From the NCBI GenBank assembly GCA_037381445.1, contig JARRQT010000077.1:16060-35835 (forward strand): 19,776 nucleotides of DNA, read 5' to 3'. The translations under genes were made by a program, and so were the position numbers. Source of the stretch: Calditrichia bacterium. Lineage in GTDB: Bacteria; Calditrichota; Calditrichia; RBG-13-44-9. Numbering within the stretch: position 1 is the first letter of the stretch; every line of letters begins with the position of its first letter. The notes beneath the pieces were generated by a model. The model did no database searches. It was not told the DNA's origin and was given only the letters and a program-made list of their open reading frames with translations. Shown here one piece after another: positions 319 through 19,277 of this stretch.

Positions 319-561
319 ATGGGTGATCAGAAAATAGTCGTTTATACGCAGCCGGGCTGAATGTTTTGCGGAAAGCTGAAAGAGTTTCTTTCAGCACACC
401 ACATCAAGTACACGGAACGGGACATTACCAGCGATGAAAAAGCATTAACTGAACTGGAAGATTTGGGGATAATGTCAACGCCGGTCACGCAAATAGGCGA
501 TGAGGTTATTGTCGGGTTTAACCGGGCCCGGCTGGAAGAACTGCTCCATGTCAAGCATTGA
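319..561 (+). CDS. Glutaredoxin/NrdH-like redoxin, predicted selenoprotein (UxxC), 80 aa
   Basis: A strong SD (GAAGGGAGGG, 303-312) precedes ATG 319. Translation is MGDQKIVVYTQPG-[TGA 358-360]-MFCGKLKEFL..., so the TGA occupies the first Cys of the VYTxPGCxxC motif. The downstream cis-Pro motif STPV and IVGFN are typical of NrdH/Grx. A hairpin lies at 375-395. Confidence 0.9.
375..395 (+). promoter_or_regulatory. Candidate bacterial SECIS element of the Grx-like gene
   Basis: GCTGAAAGA-GTT-TCTTTCAGC is a perfect 9-bp stem with a G-containing apical loop. It starts 15 nt after the in-frame UGA. Confidence 0.7.
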
Positions 562-621: not shown

Positions 622-801
622 ATGATAGAATATTTCTTTATCTGTCCGTACTGTCTGCAGCGCATATCGATGCTGCTTGACCTGTCAGTGCCGGAACAGT
701 CCTATATTGAGGATTGCGAGATTTGCTGCAATCCGATTAAAATTTCTTACCGGGTCCGTGATTCTGAAATTGCGGAATTTGACGCCCGTATTCTTGAATA
801 A
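622..801 (+). CDS. Small cysteine-rich protein of the CPXCG-motif family (zinc-ribbon-like), 59 aa
   Basis: Hand translation gives MIEYFFICPYCLQRISMLLDLSVPEQSYIEDCEICCNPIKISYRVRDSEIAEFDARILE*. The CPYC and QSYIEDCEICCNPI motifs match this family. It is just under the 60-aa size of the smallest ORFs in the supplied track. Confidence 0.88.
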   Translation: MIEYFFICPYCLQRISMLLDLSVPEQSYIEDCEICCNPIKISYRVRDSEIAEFDARILE

Positions 802-3657: not shown

Positions 3658-4128
3658 ATGTCTGAGGTGGTATATGTATCCAAAATAAAGATTGAGTGTT
3701 TCAGTAACGGACTGCGTGATGCGCATTTGCCGGCGGAGGAAAAGCCGGTGATTTTTGGTGTTCATGATGCGATTGCCGAACATTATCATGCCAACCCGGA
3801 TCGTGAACACCAGCATGCGGCAACCCTGGATTATGTGGTGGCTGCGACCGGCGGGTGACTGCTGGGAACGTTTGGCGGCGCGCTGGCAGCGCGTAAGATA
3901 AAGTTGGCAGATAGAGCCCTTACCGCAGACGTGCGGGGAGAAATTGAGCTGGAAGGAGATGTGCTGGTTATCAAGCGGATAAAGGTGAAATATAGTGTCA
4001 CCGCCCCGGCGGATGCCCGAAATATCATTGCCCGGGTTCATGACATGCATGCCCGGCATTGTCCGGTATATCGCTCAATTTATAAAGCCATAAAAATCAC
4101 CACTGATTATGAGCTGAACGAAATCTGA
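3658..4128 (+). CDS. OsmC/Ohr-family protein, predicted selenoprotein, 156 aa
   Basis: Track ORFs 3658-3858 and 3904-4128 are in the same frame and separated by a single TGA (3856-3858). The read-through is TLDYVVAATGG-U-LLGTFGGALAARKI...HARHCPVYRSI. The TGA sits at the first conserved Cys of OsmC proteins, and the second Cys (CPV) is intact. SD GGGGAG is at 3644-3649. Confidence 0.88.
3878..3894 (+). promoter_or_regulatory. Candidate bacterial SECIS element of the OsmC-like gene
   Basis: GCGCGCT-GGC-AGCGCGT is a 7-bp stem (one G-U pair) with a G-containing loop. It starts 20 nt after the in-frame UGA. Confidence 0.6.
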
Positions 4129-6163: not shown

Positions 6164-7444
6164 ATGTACAGGGGAACCCGCACTGCTGTTCTTGTTTTTA
6201 TCATTTTAGTGTTTCTCAATGTCTTATATGCGCAAGGTTTTTGGAATAGTCTTGCCCGCAGAAATACTCTGACGGGTGACTGGTGGGGAATTCGAAGCGC
6301 TCTCGCCCGGCAGGGCCTGGAATTTTCGGCATTCTATACCGGCCAGGTTTTTGCGGATGTTTCCGGCGGCCTGCGCCGGGGATCGGTTTACCTGGATGAT
6401 ATTGATATTATGCTGGAGGTGGATACCGATAAATTGCTCAACTGGAAGGGCGGTGAAATATTTCTGTATTTCATGGGATTGAACGGGAAAAGTCCTGAAA
6501 AATATATTGGGGATGTGCAGGTCGTCAGCAACATTGCCGCCTATAGTACCTGGAAACTCTATGAATTTTACGTTCAGCAAAAATTTTTTCATCAAAAGTT
6601 GTCCCTGCTGACCGGTTTGTATGATCTCAATTCGGAGTTTGATGTCCTGCGTTCCGCGCTGGTTTATATCAATGCATCACATGGTATTGATCCTACTTTT
6701 TCACAAAGCGGAAGGAATGGTCCTTCCATTTTTCCATATACTACCCTGGGGATCAGGGCCAGACTGCAGCCCCGGCGCTATTTTGGGCCCGGAGCCCGTT
6801 TGATTCTGGTGGAATACAATATCTCGAAAGGCAGTTTCTGGGTCCCCTACCCGATTCCGTTTCCTGAATGGAAAACACTGGCTGGAATTGCCGGGTTCCC
6901 TCCGAAGGAAGAAAAAACCGAGTATTCCGGCAAGTTTGCCCTGGGGTACTGGTTTTACACTGCCCGATTCCGGGCCATTTTCAGGAGACCTTTCGCTCCC
7001 GATCCGGGTGCTTCCAATCCTCTGGTACGGGGCAGCGGCGGTGGCTATCTGTTGTTCGAGAAGGTGCTTTTTCGTGAAAATCAGAATCCCGATCGGAGAC
7101 TGATGTTTTTTACCCGCCTGGGCATCGCAAATGATGAAATGAATCGTTTCGCTGCCTACTATGGCTGGGGTTTAACCTTTTATGGTCTGATTCCGGGACG
7201 GAAGCACGATATTGCAGGTGTGGCAATTGCAATTGCGGATAACGGCGACGATTACAAAAATGAACAGCTTGCGAACGGCCTCCCGGTATATGATGCGGAA
7301 TGGAATTTTGAATTTACCTACCTCAGCCAGATTACGCCCTGGCTGGCGCTGCAGCCCGATATTCAGTATGTCATTCATCCCAACACAAGTCCTGCAATAA
7401 AAAATGCACTGGCGCTTGCTTTCAGTCTCAATATTGCATTCTGA
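6164..7444 (+). CDS. Carbohydrate-selective porin (OprB family); residues 204-245 derive from the methyltransferase gene
   Basis: Signal peptide, LTGDWWGIRSAL, GDVQVVSNI, GLYDLNSEFD, GPSIFP, LQPDIQYVIHP and a terminal Phe, as in outer-membrane beta-barrels. An internal 42-aa block is copied from the methyltransferase. Confidence 0.88.
   Translation: MYRGTRTAVLVFIILVFLNVLYAQGFWNSLARRNTLTGDWWGIRSALARQGLEFSAFYTGQVFADVSGGLRRGSVYLDDIDIMLEVDTDKLLNWKGGEIFLYFMGLNGKSPEKYIGDVQVVSNIAAYSTWKLYEFYVQQKFFHQKLSLLTGLYDLNSEFDVLRSALVYINASHGIDPTFSQSGRNGPSIFPYTTLGIRARLQPRRYFGPGARLILVEYNISKGSFWVPYPIPFPEWKTLAGIAGFPPKEEKTEYSGKFALGYWFYTARFRAIFRRPFAPDPGASNPLVRGSGGGYLLFEKVLFRENQNPDRRLMFFTRLGIANDEMNRFAAYYGWGLTFYGLIPGRKHDIAGVAIAIADNGDDYKNEQLANGLPVYDAEWNFEFTYLSQITPWLALQPDIQYVIHPNTSPAIKNALALAFSLNIAF
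6772..6898 (+). repeat. 127-bp inverted repeat, left copy (inside the porin gene)
   Basis: Compared base by base with the reverse complement of 9076-9202: 126/127 identical, with one mismatch at 6784 (T) opposite 9190 (C). Confidence 0.97.
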
Positions 7445-9003: not shown

Positions 9004-9528
9004 TTACCAACTGACTGCGGAATAGATTTCGTGATGGTAGCGGCTCGGCGCGGTGCCAATCAATCGGGTGTCGCTGAACCCGGCAATTCCAGCCAGTGTT
9101 TTCCATTCAGGAAACGGAATCGGGTAGGGGACCCAGAAACTGCCTTTCGAGATATTGTATTCCACCAGAATCAAACGGGCTCCGGGCCCCAAATAGCGCC
9201 GGATTTCGCGGATGACCGCTTCCTTCTGCTTCACATAATGGAGCGCGTTGGCCATGACAATACCATTCAGTTTTGGCAGGTCCAGCGGCCGGGTGAAATC
9301 GGCGGCCAGGAAATGAACCTTTCTTCCCGGAAACATCTTATGAAAAGCCTTCTTTTGCTGCTGGAGCGACCGGGTATCGGCATCAACGGAATATATCTCT
9401 CCTGCCTCTCCGATCAGCTCGGCCAGCGCCAGGGTAAAAGCGCCCCCGCCAGAGCCCAGGTCGGCCCAAATTCCGCCTGGATCGGGGATAGCGTCTCTTA
9501 TCAGTTTTACCCGCTCAGAATGATTCAT
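9004..9528 (-). CDS. Class I SAM-dependent methyltransferase
   Basis: Motif I WADLGSGGG, acidic YSVDAD, AADF, GIVMANALHYV and YLGPGARLILVEY (the LKPGGxL equivalent). Confidence 0.9.
   Translation of the reverse strand: MNHSERVKLIRDAIPDPGGIWADLGSGGGAFTLALAELIGEAGEIYSVDADTRSLQQQKKAFHKMFPGRKVHFLAADFTRPLDLPKLNGIVMANALHYVKQKEAVIREIRRYLGPGARLILVEYNISKGSFWVPYPIPFPEWKTLAGIAGFSDTRLIGTAPSRYHHEIYSAVSW
9076..9202 (-). repeat. 127-bp inverted repeat, right copy (methyltransferase codons 110-151)
   Basis: Reverse complement of 6772-6898 with a single mismatch. Confidence 0.97.
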
Positions 9529-14780: not shown

Positions 14781-15569
14781 CTATTGCAGTGCCTCCAACT
14801 GGCTTTTGGCGAGCTTGGATTCTTCGGAATTCGGGAATTGCTGAACCACCTGATTAAAATAATTGCGGGCTTTCACTTTTTCACCCATTTTCAGGCTGCA
14901 ATATCCCATCTTAAGAAGGGCTGCCGGGACCTTGGTCCCGCCGGGATAATTGGTGGTGACCAGTTTAAATTCATCAAAAGCCACATGATAAATGCCCTGG
15001 GCATAAAACGTCTCCGCGATCCAATACTGGGCATTGTCCGCCAGTTCGCTGTCCGGAAATTTTTTGAGATATTCCCGGAATCCGAGCAGCGACAGCTCAT
15101 ACTTCCCCTTGGTGAGGTCGATGTAGGCGTTGTTATACAGTTCCCGCGCATCGATCTCCATGGTGGGAGCGTTCAGACGCAAGGAATCGCCGGCTGGATT
15201 GGCGGTAAGGGAATCTCCTGCCAGCATGGCCGGAGTGGGGCGCTCGGATTTCTGCATGATCTTTGATAACTGCTGCATATTGTCCTGGAGCTTGTTGTCG
15301 ATGAACTGGGACTGCTGCTTCAGGCTCGATATCTCGGTCAGCAGATCCGCTTTTGTCCGGTTGTTTTCTTCTTCCAGTGCGGAAATGGAGCCGTTGATTT
15401 CCAGCAGCATCTTTCTGAGCTGCTCATTTTCGCTGCGGATTGCTTCCACCTGGTTTTTCAGATACATCATATCGGTCTGAAACTGCACTACCTCTTTGCG
15501 GGTAGCGCAGCCGGTAAAGAATGCGATCAGCAGTATGATGCAGCCCGCTTTAATCCATTTTGTTCTCAT
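14781..15569 (-). CDS. cpoB: Tol-Pal system protein CpoB/YbgF
   Basis: N-terminal coiled coil, then a TPR domain (FPDSELADNAQYWIAE, YPGGTKVPAALLKMG, FPNSEESKLA). Immediately downstream of pal. Confidence 0.92.
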   Translation of the reverse strand: MRTKWIKAGCIILLIAFFTGCATRKEVVQFQTDMMYLKNQVEAIRSENEQLRKMLLEINGSISALEEENNRTKADLLTEISSLKQQSQFIDNKLQDNMQQLSKIMQKSERPTPAMLAGDSLTANPAGDSLRLNAPTMEIDARELYNNAYIDLTKGKYELSLLGFREYLKKFPDSELADNAQYWIAETFYAQGIYHVAFDEFKLVTTNYPGGTKVPAALLKMGYCSLKMGEKVKARNYFNQVVQQFPNSEESKLAKSQLEALQ

Positions 15570-15630
15570 GTTCGTACCTTATCTGATTTTTTCGGGAACC
15601 GGATTATCAATTTAAAAAAAGATGTTCATT

Positions 15631-16173
15631 TTACCGGCCGACAATCTTAAAATCAGCCCGCCGGTTCTTTGACCAGGCTTCCGGTGTATGGCCTGTGTCC
15701 ACCGGCCTTTCCTCGCCGTAACTGATGGTGGAGATGCGGCCTTCGTCAATTCCGTAATTCACCAGATAATTTTTCACGGCGTAGGCCCGTTTTTCACCCA
15801 GTGCCAGGTTGTATTCAATGGTGCCGCGTTCATCGCAATTTCCTTCGATTAAAACCCTGGTATTGGGATAAGCCTTCATGACTTTGGCATTCTGCGCCAG
15901 CGCGTCCCGGGCATCGGAGCGGATATCTGATTTGTCATAATCGAAGTAAACGGTTTTAAATGCCAGTTCAATTTTCGGCGCGGTGGATTCTTTTTTGCTG
16001 GTTTCGGCGGATTCCTGTTCCTTGGCGCCTTCATTTATCTGGGATTCCTGCGGCTGCTCTACTGCCGGCGCCGCAGTTGCATCGGGAATTTTCGTTGCTT
16101 TCTTTTGACAACCGCCAAACACAAGTGCAATCAGCAGACCTGAAATGAGTGTGAGAAACATAGATTTCTTCAT
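15631..16173 (-). CDS. pal: Peptidoglycan-associated lipoprotein Pal
   Basis: Lipobox FGGC and an OmpA-like domain (VYFDYDKS, IEGNCDERGTIEYNLALGEKRA, ISYGEERP, NRRA). Confidence 0.97.
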   Translation of the reverse strand: MKKSMFLTLISGLLIALVFGGCQKKATKIPDATAAPAVEQPQESQINEGAKEQESAETSKKESTAPKIELAFKTVYFDYDKSDIRSDARDALAQNAKVMKAYPNTRVLIEGNCDERGTIEYNLALGEKRAYAVKNYLVNYGIDEGRISTISYGEERPVDTGHTPEAWSKNRRADFKIVGR

Positions 16174-16250
16174 GTGAACATACCTCCTGGTTTATTGTTT
16201 TGTTCTCATCTCTCGAATAAATAATTAAAAGTATCCGATGGAAAATAATT

Positions 16251-17558
16251 CTATTTAATACTGAGCCGGGGCGACCATTTTGGCGAAAAATGATTACCCG
16301 AGTCAGTTAACTGCCGGAGATGGGAGCCGTCCCAGTTCATTACGTAGATATCCCATTTTCCGGTGCGGTTCGATGCGAAGACAACTTTCAATCCGTCGGG
16401 GGACCATGACGGGTTCTCATTGCTTCCCTCCCCGTTGGTCAGCGCAGTTGTATTTTCGCCGGTCACTTCCACGGTATATATTTGAAATCCGCCCTCTTCG
16501 CGGGAGACATAGGCGATGCGGTCGCCCCGCGGGGACCAGGCAGGGGAGTCATTATAATTTCCCAAATAGGTAAGCCTGCGCACATTGCCGCCTTCCGCGT
16601 CCATGAGGTAGACCTGCGGATTACCGCTGCGGTCCGATGTGAAGGCGATTTCATTGCCGGTGGGAGACCATGAAGGTGATGAATCGATAGATGGGCCGGA
16701 AGTCAGCCGGCGGAGATGCCCACCTCCGGAATCCATGATGTAGATATCCGCGTTGCCGTCCCTGGTCAGCGTAAAAGCGATTTTTTTGCCGTCAGGCGAC
16801 CAGCAGGGAGCAGTGGGAAGCCCCCCCTGTTTCCACAGGGATGTCATGGCCCCGCTGGAGATATCCATCGAAACCAGCTCCGGGGTCCCTGACTTGTAGC
16901 TGGTGAAGGCGATCCGCTTTCCGTCCGGTGACCAGGCCGGAGAAAGGTTCAGGGAATTCATATTTGTTAATTTTTCCAGATCGTTGGCATCGTAATCCAT
17001 CACAGAAATTTCTTTGACACCGCTTTTGCCGCTAGTGAAGGCGATCCGGCTGGAAGCGACACCCCTTTCGCCAATCAGATAGTAGACAACCTCGTCGGCG
17101 GCCTGATGCGCCAGCCAGCGGAAAGAACCGAAGGCGGACTGAAATTTTTTCCGGAAAATGGCCTGCTGGCCCGGCAGTTCCTCCAGGTCTGCGGAAAGCT
17201 GCAATTCATTGCCATTGATTCCCAGCGTGCCCAGCAGCCGCACAGCCGCAGCGGATGATGCCGGAAGGGCGCCTCCCAATCCGGCGGTCTGGCCTGAGGC
17301 CTGGACGCCCGGCACTTCATCGACAACGCGGAAGAAGCCGGACAATTTCAGATCATTGATGATAACCGCTCTGATTTTCTGCGTCAGATCAGTTGGCTGC
17401 TGCGAGATAAAAGGCGGGATTGAAATCGCGATGGGCTGGAATCCCCCGGACTGTATTTTCATGTAGACATCTTCCTGTGCGGAAGCCCGGAAAATTAAAA
17501 AACCAAATACCATCAAAATCGCCAGGAGGAATGTTCGCTTTATAGTCATAACTACCAT
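16251..17558 (-). CDS. tolB: Tol-Pal beta-propeller protein TolB
   Basis: Signal peptide, TolB N-domain (DLKLSGFF, AHQAADEV) and repeated PxWSPDGxxIAF PD40 units. Sits between tolA and pal. The start may be 17549. Confidence 0.95.
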   Translation of the reverse strand: MVVMTIKRTFLLAILMVFGFLIFRASAQEDVYMKIQSGGFQPIAISIPPFISQQPTDLTQKIRAVIINDLKLSGFFRVVDEVPGVQASGQTAGLGGALPASSAAAVRLLGTLGINGNELQLSADLEELPGQQAIFRKKFQSAFGSFRWLAHQAADEVVYYLIGERGVASSRIAFTSGKSGVKEISVMDYDANDLEKLTNMNSLNLSPAWSPDGKRIAFTSYKSGTPELVSMDISSGAMTSLWKQGGLPTAPCWSPDGKKIAFTLTRDGNADIYIMDSGGGHLRRLTSGPSIDSSPSWSPTGNEIAFTSDRSGNPQVYLMDAEGGNVRRLTYLGNYNDSPAWSPRGDRIAYVSREEGGFQIYTVEVTGENTTALTNGEGSNENPSWSPDGLKVVFASNRTGKWDIYVMNWDGSHLRQLTDSGNHFSPKWSPRLSIK

Positions 17559-18187
17559 GTCGCCTCAAATTCTATGTGAACGGTTAATTGTTCGCCCGAA
17601 AACTCTTCCGGCAGAGGAGGAAGCGGACCCGCAGCATAAACGGCCCGTTGTGCCGCCTGGTCAAACAGGTATTTATTCGATGATGTTTCCACTGCTACTT
17701 CGGCAATCTTGCCGTTTCTCAGCACCCGGAAGCCCACAATGGCGCTGATTTTCTCCGCCTGTCCGGATGACTGATAGGGCGGTTTCCAGTTCTCCTGAAC
17801 GCGGTATCGCAGCAGGTTCAGATAATAGGAAAAGGGAAAATCTTTCGTGTCTACTTTCACCTGTTTACCCGATTGCCGGGCCGGGGCGGCCGTTTCTTCT
17901 TTCACCGGAGGCGCCTTGGGCGTTTCTTTTTTTACCTTTTTGGTGGTTGTTTTCACAGCCGCACTCTTCTCCTTTGCCGGTTTGGGCTTTGGCGCCGGCG
18001 GTTTGATCTCCGGTTTCGGACTCTCTTTCTTCATGGTCACTTTTTTGACCGGCGGCGGCATGCTGACCAGTTCAACCTGGTAAACATCCATCTTGCGGGG
18101 GAAGAGTCGGGAGGTAGTGCTCCAGAAAATCAAAAAAACAATGACCGATATATGTAATGCTATCGATATAAGAACGGGAATTCTCAT
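17552..18187 (-). CDS. tolA: TolA/TonB-family energy transducer (TolA by operon position)
   Basis: N-terminal anchor with SxxxH (SIALH), a Pro/Lys-rich linker and a C-terminal domain (YYLNLLRYRVQENW, SSNKYLFDQAAQRAV, PLPPLP). Confidence 0.85.
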   Translation of the reverse strand: MRIPVLISIALHISVIVFLIFWSTTSRLFPRKMDVYQVELVSMPPPVKKVTMKKESPKPEIKPPAPKPKPAKEKSAAVKTTTKKVKKETPKAPPVKEETAAPARQSGKQVKVDTKDFPFSYYLNLLRYRVQENWKPPYQSSGQAEKISAIVGFRVLRNGKIAEVAVETSSNKYLFDQAAQRAVYAAGPLPPLPEEFSGEQLTVHIEFEATW

Positions 18188-18588
18188 TTCTTGCTGTCGT
18201 CGGGTTCTACGATTAAGCCCAGGTTATTAATCCCTACACTTTTGATTTTGTCCATTAATTCGATGACTTTTCCGTAAGGCACGGCTTTATCGGCCTGCAG
18301 CATGACCTGCTGCTGATTGCGGGCCGAATATTTTTTCAGCAGAACAGTTGCGAAATTATCAGGGCTTACTCTCTCATCGTCGATGGAAATGATGCCATCG
18401 CGATTGAGGCTGACCAGGGTACCCTGTTTTGCATGGATGTCCGCCGCATTTGATTTTGGCAGCTGAACCTCCATGCCTTTGCGCAGCAGGGGGGCGGTGA
18501 TCATGAAAATGATAAGCAGCACCATGGTGACATCCACCAGATTCGTTACATTTATCTCGGAAAGGGAAGTATAGCGGCTGCGTTTCAT
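18184..18588 (-). CDS. tolR: TolR/ExbD biopolymer transport protein
   Basis: SEINVTNLVDVTMVLLIIFMITAP and ADKAVPYGKVI. Its start overlaps the tolQ stop (ATGA). Confidence 0.93.
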   Translation of the reverse strand: MKRSRYTSLSEINVTNLVDVTMVLLIIFMITAPLLRKGMEVQLPKSNAADIHAKQGTLVSLNRDGIISIDDERVSPDNFATVLLKKYSARNQQQVMLQADKAVPYGKVIELMDKIKSVGINNLGLIVEPDDSKK

Positions 18589-19277
18589 TCCGTTTTCTCC
18601 CGGTCCATGAGGCGGATCAGTTCGGTGGCGAAATTCTCCAGTTTTCCGTCCAGCCGGCGGATGTTATCCACAAAATAGTTATAGGCAATCAGGGCCGGGA
18701 TGGCCACCGCCAGACCGGCTACGGTGGTGATCAGCGCCTCGGCGATTCCCGGACCTACCGAAGAGATGTCAGCGGAACCGGTGGCGCCGATGCTCAGAAA
18801 AGCGCTCATGATTCCCCACACCGTGCCCAGCAGGCCCAGAAATGGACTCACGCTCACGGTGGTGGAGAGGATAATCATCCGTTTTTCCAGATCTGATATC
18901 TCATCTGAGTGATAGGTTCCCAGGATCGCCGCCGGAGAGACGGATTCTTTTTTCACCGCCACCGGATTTGATGCGTTTTGATAAAGCAGCTCGCGCTCTC
19001 CATTTTGGTTCCACGACTGCATCTCGCTGTAAAATCTTTTTACAACCCGCGGATAGGGACTGACCCGAAAATCGCGGCTGTAGGCGTAAAGCTCATTCCA
19101 GCCCGGATGCATCCTGAAAATCTGCAAAAACTTCCTGGATTCTCTTTTTATCTTTAAGAAGAGCCGGGTTTTTTCAAGAATGATTGCCCAGGAGACAACG
19201 GATAAGATAAGCAAAATCGTTAGAACTGCTTTGGTTACAATTCCTGCGTGGATGATAAATTGGAAAATCTCACTCAT
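18585..19277 (-). CDS. tolQ: TolQ/ExbB/MotA proton channel
   Basis: SVVSWAII, SPFLGLLGTVWGIM and GPGIAEALITTVAGLAVAIPA. First gene of the tol-pal operon. Confidence 0.94.
   Translation of the reverse strand: MSEIFQFIIHAGIVTKAVLTILLILSVVSWAIILEKTRLFLKIKRESRKFLQIFRMHPGWNELYAYSRDFRVSPYPRVVKRFYSEMQSWNQNGERELLYQNASNPVAVKKESVSPAAILGTYHSDEISDLEKRMIILSTTVSVSPFLGLLGTVWGIMSAFLSIGATGSADISSVGPGIAEALITTVAGLAVAIPALIAYNYFVDNIRRLDGKLENFATELIRLMDREKTE

Follow-up and report, generated by a model that had tools for sequence, protein, structure and literature searches.

Selenocysteine-containing glutaredoxins are an established class: Table 1 of PMC13188914 lists the selenoprotein glutaredoxin (Grx, PF00462, UxxC) as experimentally verified. 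According to PMC7642778 and PMC4479559, cGrx1 of Clostridium (Alkaliphilus) oremlandii carries selenocysteine in its native form (U13/C16); its client MsrA, which it reduces, is itself a selenoprotein, and its reductant is named as glutathione. PMC3720550 describes a related route, in which Cp9 receives electrons from thioredoxin reductase and passes them to peroxiredoxin, and it defines the NrdH-redoxins by a C-[VMI]-Q-C motif and an nrdHIEF operon. For the RNA element, the bSECIS model (PMC13188914, Fig. 2 legend) gives a loop of 3-9 nt with a G in its first two positions and a stem of 4-16 bp, at 16-37 nt from the UGA and with a minimum free energy of at most -7.5.

The window analyzed here is a stretch of 19,776 nucleotides from a Calditrichia bacterium, close to the start of which an initial annotation, made from the letters alone, had placed a hidden selenoprotein. 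The gene (319-561, + strand) almost certainly begins at ATG 319, with an in-frame UGA that is very likely read as selenocysteine at a glutaredoxin-like active site. The strong ribosome-binding site claimed for ATG 319, and its absence at ATG 361, are both apparent: a GGAGG Shine-Dalgarno (SD) sequence (307-311, +) lies 7 nt upstream of ATG 319, and the duplex energies, computed against an anti-SD sequence, are -12.4 kcal/mol for ATG 319 and -4.1 kcal/mol for ATG 361. The TGA at 358-360 (+) is in frame with ATG 319, as described, and reading it as selenocysteine gives MGDQKIVVYTQPG-U-MFC...LLHVKH, an 80-residue product with active site U14-M-F-C17 and Pro55 in an STP motif, which ends at TGA 559-561. 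The expectation that standard gene callers would report a 66-residue protein is borne out, as the plain ORF list contains solely the form at 361-561 and the same form is entered in the protein collection (P0003). The read-through form matches the Pfam Glutaredoxin profile (PF00462) with an E value of 1.5e-13, against 3.1e-8 for the truncated form, and at 51.2 bits it exceeds the gathering cut-off of 22.9. A second selenocysteine at the terminal TGA was considered and ruled out: among 76 distinct family genes (the window gene included, among the matches listed) the terminal stop is TGA in 40, TAG in 20 and TAA in 15, with one gene cut off, and this variation identifies the terminal TGA as a true stop.

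In the structure model of the protein (pLDDT 85), strand E6-10 precedes helix H15-26, and the active-site motif sits at the start of helix 1. The closest solved structure is dithiol cGrx1 (7c10; TM 0.89, rmsd 0.7, 46% identity; sequence E value 1.8e-18), followed by B. cereus BC3987 and then by NrdH proteins, and the UGA aligns with a cysteine in these solved homologs, as had been anticipated. Like cGrx1 (PDB 7c10, 7c12, 7c13), the window protein has selenocysteine first in a UxxC motif, is of equal size, and carries KEFLS after the motif and a VVGFD-type C-terminus, but the U-P-x-C motif of cGrx1 is preceded by YTSNT, whereas U-M-F-C in the window protein is preceded by YTQPG. The partners also differ, in that cGrx1 is described as working with MsrA and glutathione, whereas a profile search of the host assembly for MsrA, GshA (PF04262) and GshB (TIGR01380) found none of these families. 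With BC3987 and the clostridial Cp9-type proteins (PDB 3zij, 3zit) the window protein shares the YTQP stretch ahead of the catalytic motif, STP/TTP preceding the Pro, and the fold (TM 0.84-0.89 and 39-42% identity between the BC3987-type structures and the model); those proteins, however, are Cys-only (CPPC), lack a UGA or SECIS and have another gene neighborhood, whereas the window gene has both a UGA and a hairpin.

The curated families are less accommodating. Matches to the YruB, NrdH and UXX-star profiles are significant (E 7e-20, 1.9e-14, 5e-14), reflecting a shared fold, but the protein falls below the curated cut-off of NrdH TIGR02194 (53.6 vs 85.75 bits), YruB TIGR02196 (71.3 vs 88.55 bits) and UXX-star NF041212, with its subfamilies NF041211 and NF047338 (52.3 vs 66 bits); no curated NCBIfam family therefore covers it. 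Two relatives, L064 (54.5 bits) and L033 (49.9 bits), are likewise below the UXX-star cut-off, and both are also below those of YruB and NrdH. The window protein further differs from UXX-star in that its terminal stop is an ordinary one that varies in the family, and from the NrdH-redoxins, as defined in PMC3720550, in its UMFC motif and in its neighbors, which include no nrd genes and no nrdHIEF context in the window. Of the original label of a glutaredoxin/NrdH-like protein, the glutaredoxin fold is thus upheld by the likeness to cGrx1, while NrdH proper is more distant. The description of Sec-containing glutaredoxin-like proteins as a known class agrees with the verified Grx class in Table 1 of PMC13188914, and the window gene resembles that class in its PF00462 score, its UxxC motif and its bSECIS-fitting hairpin, although inclusion of the QPG-U-MFC form is not evident from the table. 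A literature search found no paper naming a QPG-U-MFC subfamily; supplements to selenoproteome surveys may list members. The window gene is, then, a PF00462 UxxC member of a known and experimentally verified class, and its chemistry is not new. What changes is the annotation: the protein on record is missing both its nucleophile and its first strand, an error repeated throughout the subfamily.

The hairpin reported downstream of the UGA is also confirmed, and it forms a predicted bacterial SECIS element (375-395, +) within the codons for (K)LKEFLS(A). Nine Watson-Crick pairs join 375-383 to 387-395 around a GUU loop (384-386); the hairpin starts 14 nt downstream of the UGA and the UGA-to-loop distance is 23 nt. 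Checked by hand against the model in the Fig. 2 legend of PMC13188914, the element (loop 3, stem 9, GUU, 23 nt, -12.0 to -14.5 kcal/mol) lies inside all four of the published bacterial criteria. Folds of 40-53 nt give z scores of -2.3 to -2.5, with 5 of 200 shuffles as good, and the signal declines in longer folds, to a z of -1.45 over 63 nt and of -0.49 over 300-400. When the 15 codons after the UGA were recoded synonymously 3000 times, 0.8% of the recodings folded as well and 0.27% had a stem of at least 9 bp.

Codons inside the hairpin are frozen across the 76 distinct genes: V20 is GTG in 64/65, E22 is GAG in 76/76 and L24 is CTT in 75/76, while in the same genes CTT accounts for 29/215 codons over three further Leu positions, and GAG for 128/291 over five further Glu positions. 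For covariation, 43 of the 76 sequences were selected to thin near-duplicates. The 7-bp core is 94.4% paired across these, with nine double changes (both sides); none of 500 shuffles reached either the core pairing or the double-change figure, slid controls gave 34-66%, and these figures are not probabilities since the family sequences are related to each other. Two further covariation measures do not stand out from the shuffles, at 56/500 for pairs showing a double change and 490/500 for additional pair types. The window hairpin itself carries its own compensatory swap from G-C to C-G. As judged from these comparisons of sequence, the hairpin is under selection across the family, which illustrates cleanly how a SECIS can be embedded in a coding region, with three degenerate codons frozen. 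The apparently invariant KEFLS motif may partly reflect this RNA constraint.

Whether the host can decode the UGA was examined in its assembly (91.85% complete, 401 contigs). Of the four genes named in the initial annotation, selA, selB and selD are present, all over cut-off, and selC was not found. The search for tRNA-Sec in the host assembly (Rfam over cut-off, ARAGORN, a motif scan, nhmmer, and blastn with the tRNA-Sec of 12 relatives as query) returned nothing; two relaxed ARAGORN 'SeC' candidates (C7, C100) were rejected for broken stems. The assembly holds 39 tRNAs, and tRNA-Asn and tRNA-Ile are absent from it as well. The SelD protein has Cys in place of Sec and follows a NifS-like cysteine desulfurase in a single fusion gene (G000:C191:4899-7078, -; L019), and the NifS part, upstream of SelD, carries a small deletion and a frameshift, likely another assembly error.

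This record bears on the best-surviving alternative, namely that, although the family consists of selenoproteins, this organism no longer has a functional Sec system and its copy of the gene is a dead or truncated relic. We consider it very unlikely. Besides the missing tRNA-Sec, it can draw on the state of selA, which is split over two contig ends with its middle absent from the assembly, and of selB, which is frameshifted and lacks about 30-35 codons relative to relatives, as well as on a query with the window gene that found no close ortholog in 85 other genomes of the phylum (E <= 1e-13), leaving room for a recent arrival. The selB break, however, is bridged in an independent contig: sequencing run X1 supplies 101 bases exactly at the joint, bringing both selB parts into one frame, although X1 may be the source sample and is in that case an independent assembly and not an independent organism. 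Runs X2 and X3 (one sample, from another study) show loose ends at the same joint. When selB looks broken in a metagenome-assembled genome, the cause can thus be an assembly error. Most relatives also keep the system (selB in 34/40, tRNA-Sec over cut-off in 33/40), and the compensatory change in the window hairpin speaks against a remnant. The genome of the homolog L033 contains selB and tRNA-Sec. The break itself lies at G000:C140 near 16291 (L016:2135-2136), where the gene looks like a pseudogene with the 101 bases absent.

Three other UGA genes in the host are intact and have hairpins, which further argues against loss of the system. These are a PrxU peroxiredoxin (TFVU; L145:287-889, +) with 393 bits against an NCBIfam cut-off of 270, a SelW-like protein (CNEU; L146:368-598, -) with 95 bits against a cut-off of 88, and an OsmC-like candidate selenoprotein in the window (3658-4128, +; TGA 3856-3858; AATGG-U-LLGT; 156 residues). 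The last has a strong SD and is over the Pfam OsmC cut-off but below that of NF041052; its GGC-loop hairpin, 26 nt after the UGA, is no stabler than shuffles (z -0.55). Each of the three has a G-first-loop hairpin inside the bSECIS range of the published legend, and together they support a predicted active selenoproteome in the host. The genome-wide UGA screen was home-made and noisy, and gives at least four UGA selenoprotein genes; four is a lower bound, because the first filter of the screen missed the window gene. The SelW-like gene stands tail to tail with trxB on contig C9. The host also has a Cys paralog of the window protein (L032, G000:C154:9764-9991; CSFC), which reaches the YruB cut-off at 88.6 bits and may back up the selenoprotein under selenium scarcity.

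The family at large shows how regularly the UGA recurs. Metagenome loci were searched with a query carrying Cys at the UGA position, so any bias runs against TGA, and the best 80 of 552 confirmed loci were compared. TGA is found in 79 of these best 80 (78 at position 14; in L124 after one extra Gly) and TGC in L140 alone, though the loci are related to each other and the counts are not independent events. Genome contigs contributed one homolog with TGA at this position (L033, from an Armatimonadota genome) and two distant Cys forms, eight unrelated or weak matches having been dropped. Cys17 is retained in 75/76 distinct genes.

It is extremely unlikely, given this recurrence, that a TGC/TGT Cys codon was turned into TGA by faulty sequencing or assembly, or by a nonsense mutation in this allele. 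The assembly does contain errors elsewhere (101 bases deleted from selB and, within the window, an inverted copy of 127 bp), and Cys forms do occur in the wider family (P0004, P0033, L140), but against this, besides the loci with an identical TGA, the 66-residue product is found in Logan assemblies as well, including a one-residue variant (P0168) on another contig, as expected if the UGA is present there too.

Upstream of the UGA, codons 5-13 keep their amino acids while synonymous positions change freely (V6 1.9 bits, V8 1.9, P12 1.8; G13 in 76/76 with 1.65 bits), and this stretch is therefore coding. A product of 66 residues from Met 361, a one-cysteine variant into which the upstream codons are not translated, is vanishingly improbable: this form is recorded in databases and an ATG follows the UGA in 60/76 genes, but the other 16/76 have another codon there (one GTG, no TTG), an SD match of at least 4 nt precedes that codon in 0/76 against 58/76 at the upstream start, the upstream codons evolve as protein, and the truncated form would, going by the model, lack the first beta-strand (residues 6-10). 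At the protein level, where the initial annotation had been wary of homologs that all start at Met 361, 13 of the 14 homologs found besides the gene's own truncated product are indeed 58-66 residues long and begin at that position or just downstream, P0004 (CMPC form) being the sole full-length one. The same UGA and conserved upstream coding are nevertheless present in homologous DNA, so the truncation in databases points to the same miscall.

The reading of the UGA as selenocysteine, which was the central proposal of the initial annotation, is thus supported by the family-wide UGA, the selection on a conserved hairpin, the likeness of fold, and the presence of most of the Sec machinery (selA, selB and selD) in the organism. 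By the known pathway, SelB with Sec-tRNA would bind the GUU-loop hairpin and insert Sec14. The 80-residue protein most likely acts, by analogy, as a predicted UxxC thiol-disulfide reductase: following thioredoxin-fold chemistry, the Sec14 selenolate would attack a substrate disulfide, Cys17 would resolve the intermediate to a selenenylsulfide, and the protein would then be re-reduced. The reductant is probably NADPH thioredoxin reductase, which we favor because trxB is present in the host assembly, the glutathione synthesis genes searched for were not found there, and PMC3720550 connects the BC3987/Cp9 group with thioredoxin reductase and peroxiredoxins; cGrx1, by contrast, is described as dependent on glutathione. 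By the same kind of analogy, the likeliest clients are repair and peroxide enzymes of the organism, and we put at about even the chance that the true partners include at least one of MsrB, encoded 2.1 kb upstream, the OsmC-like selenoprotein, encoded 3.1 kb downstream, and the Sec-peroxiredoxin.

The gene neighborhood suits a role in stress and repair: a same-strand run comprises MsrB, aldo-keto reductases, the window gene, a CPXCG protein, a Na+/H+ antiporter, an NADPH oxidoreductase and the OsmC-like selenoprotein. After the MsrB gene (L144:7826-8293, +) come a short ORF resembling aldo-keto reductases and then a full-length one. The CPXCG cysteine-rich protein (59 residues, PF14255; window 622-801, +) has no clear SD, and it is not among the neighbor clusters listed for the homolog loci.

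The window gene itself may have been acquired by transfer, as suggested by the lack of a close ortholog in the other genomes of the phylum and by the nearest homologs (up to 66-69% identical), the named ones of which come from other phyla; among 40 relatives, 8 have just a C-x-F-C YruB-type protein at 31-33% identity. The tree, made by a quick method on 77 columns with 81/120 inner branches unresolved and with cGrx1 absent, gives the window gene no firm position and does not prove transfer.

Elsewhere in the family, metal-handling neighbors recur. With Pfam or NCBIfam support they are found at 33/76 loci, or 37 with looser labels, on flanks that are often short: MerB at 9, CopZ/BFD-like at 19, MerR at 15, a MerA-like flavoprotein at 3 and a P1B ATPase at 6. 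The labels 'MerC-like' (no match) and 'MerT-like' (one weak match) are guesses and were counted apart. The MerB matches have no internal stop within their aligned parts. Of the 31 mer-type loci, 30 lie in one 44-row branch, to which the window gene does not belong, and one event may account for them. It is conceivable, if rather unlikely, that QPG-U-MFC is an uncatalogued, widespread, truncation-hidden selenoprotein subfamily, one branch of which was recruited into mercury and heavy-metal resistance clusters. There, in a protein encoded immediately after genes for MerB-like lyases or CopZ-like chaperones and near MerR, the selenolate would keep metal-handling thiols reduced or would trap Hg itself. 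If true, the mer pathway would gain a selenoprotein, with the window copy as a stress-cluster member outside the branch; the heavy-metal gene context of this one branch is the sole lead beyond known chemistry.

Some arrangements at these loci deserve separate mention. In L082, L088, L089, L105, L114, L115, L119, L125 and L128 the selenoprotein gene follows a MerB-like lyase gene by about 15-19 nt, and several of these MerB-adjacent loci have CopZ/BFD-like, MerR and MerA-like genes at a greater distance upstream. In L113, L118, L122 and L124 the selenoprotein gene is preceded by tandem rubrerythrin-like genes and by a fusion of a Cys glutaredoxin with a PDZ domain. Within the window, the 127-bp inverted copy (99.2%) repeats part of a methyltransferase gene (6772-6898 and 9076-9202) in frame inside an OprB porin gene, and is probably an assembly chimera. 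Further along, 14781-19277 (-) holds an ordinary tolQ-tolR-tolA/tonB-tolB-pal-cpoB operon.
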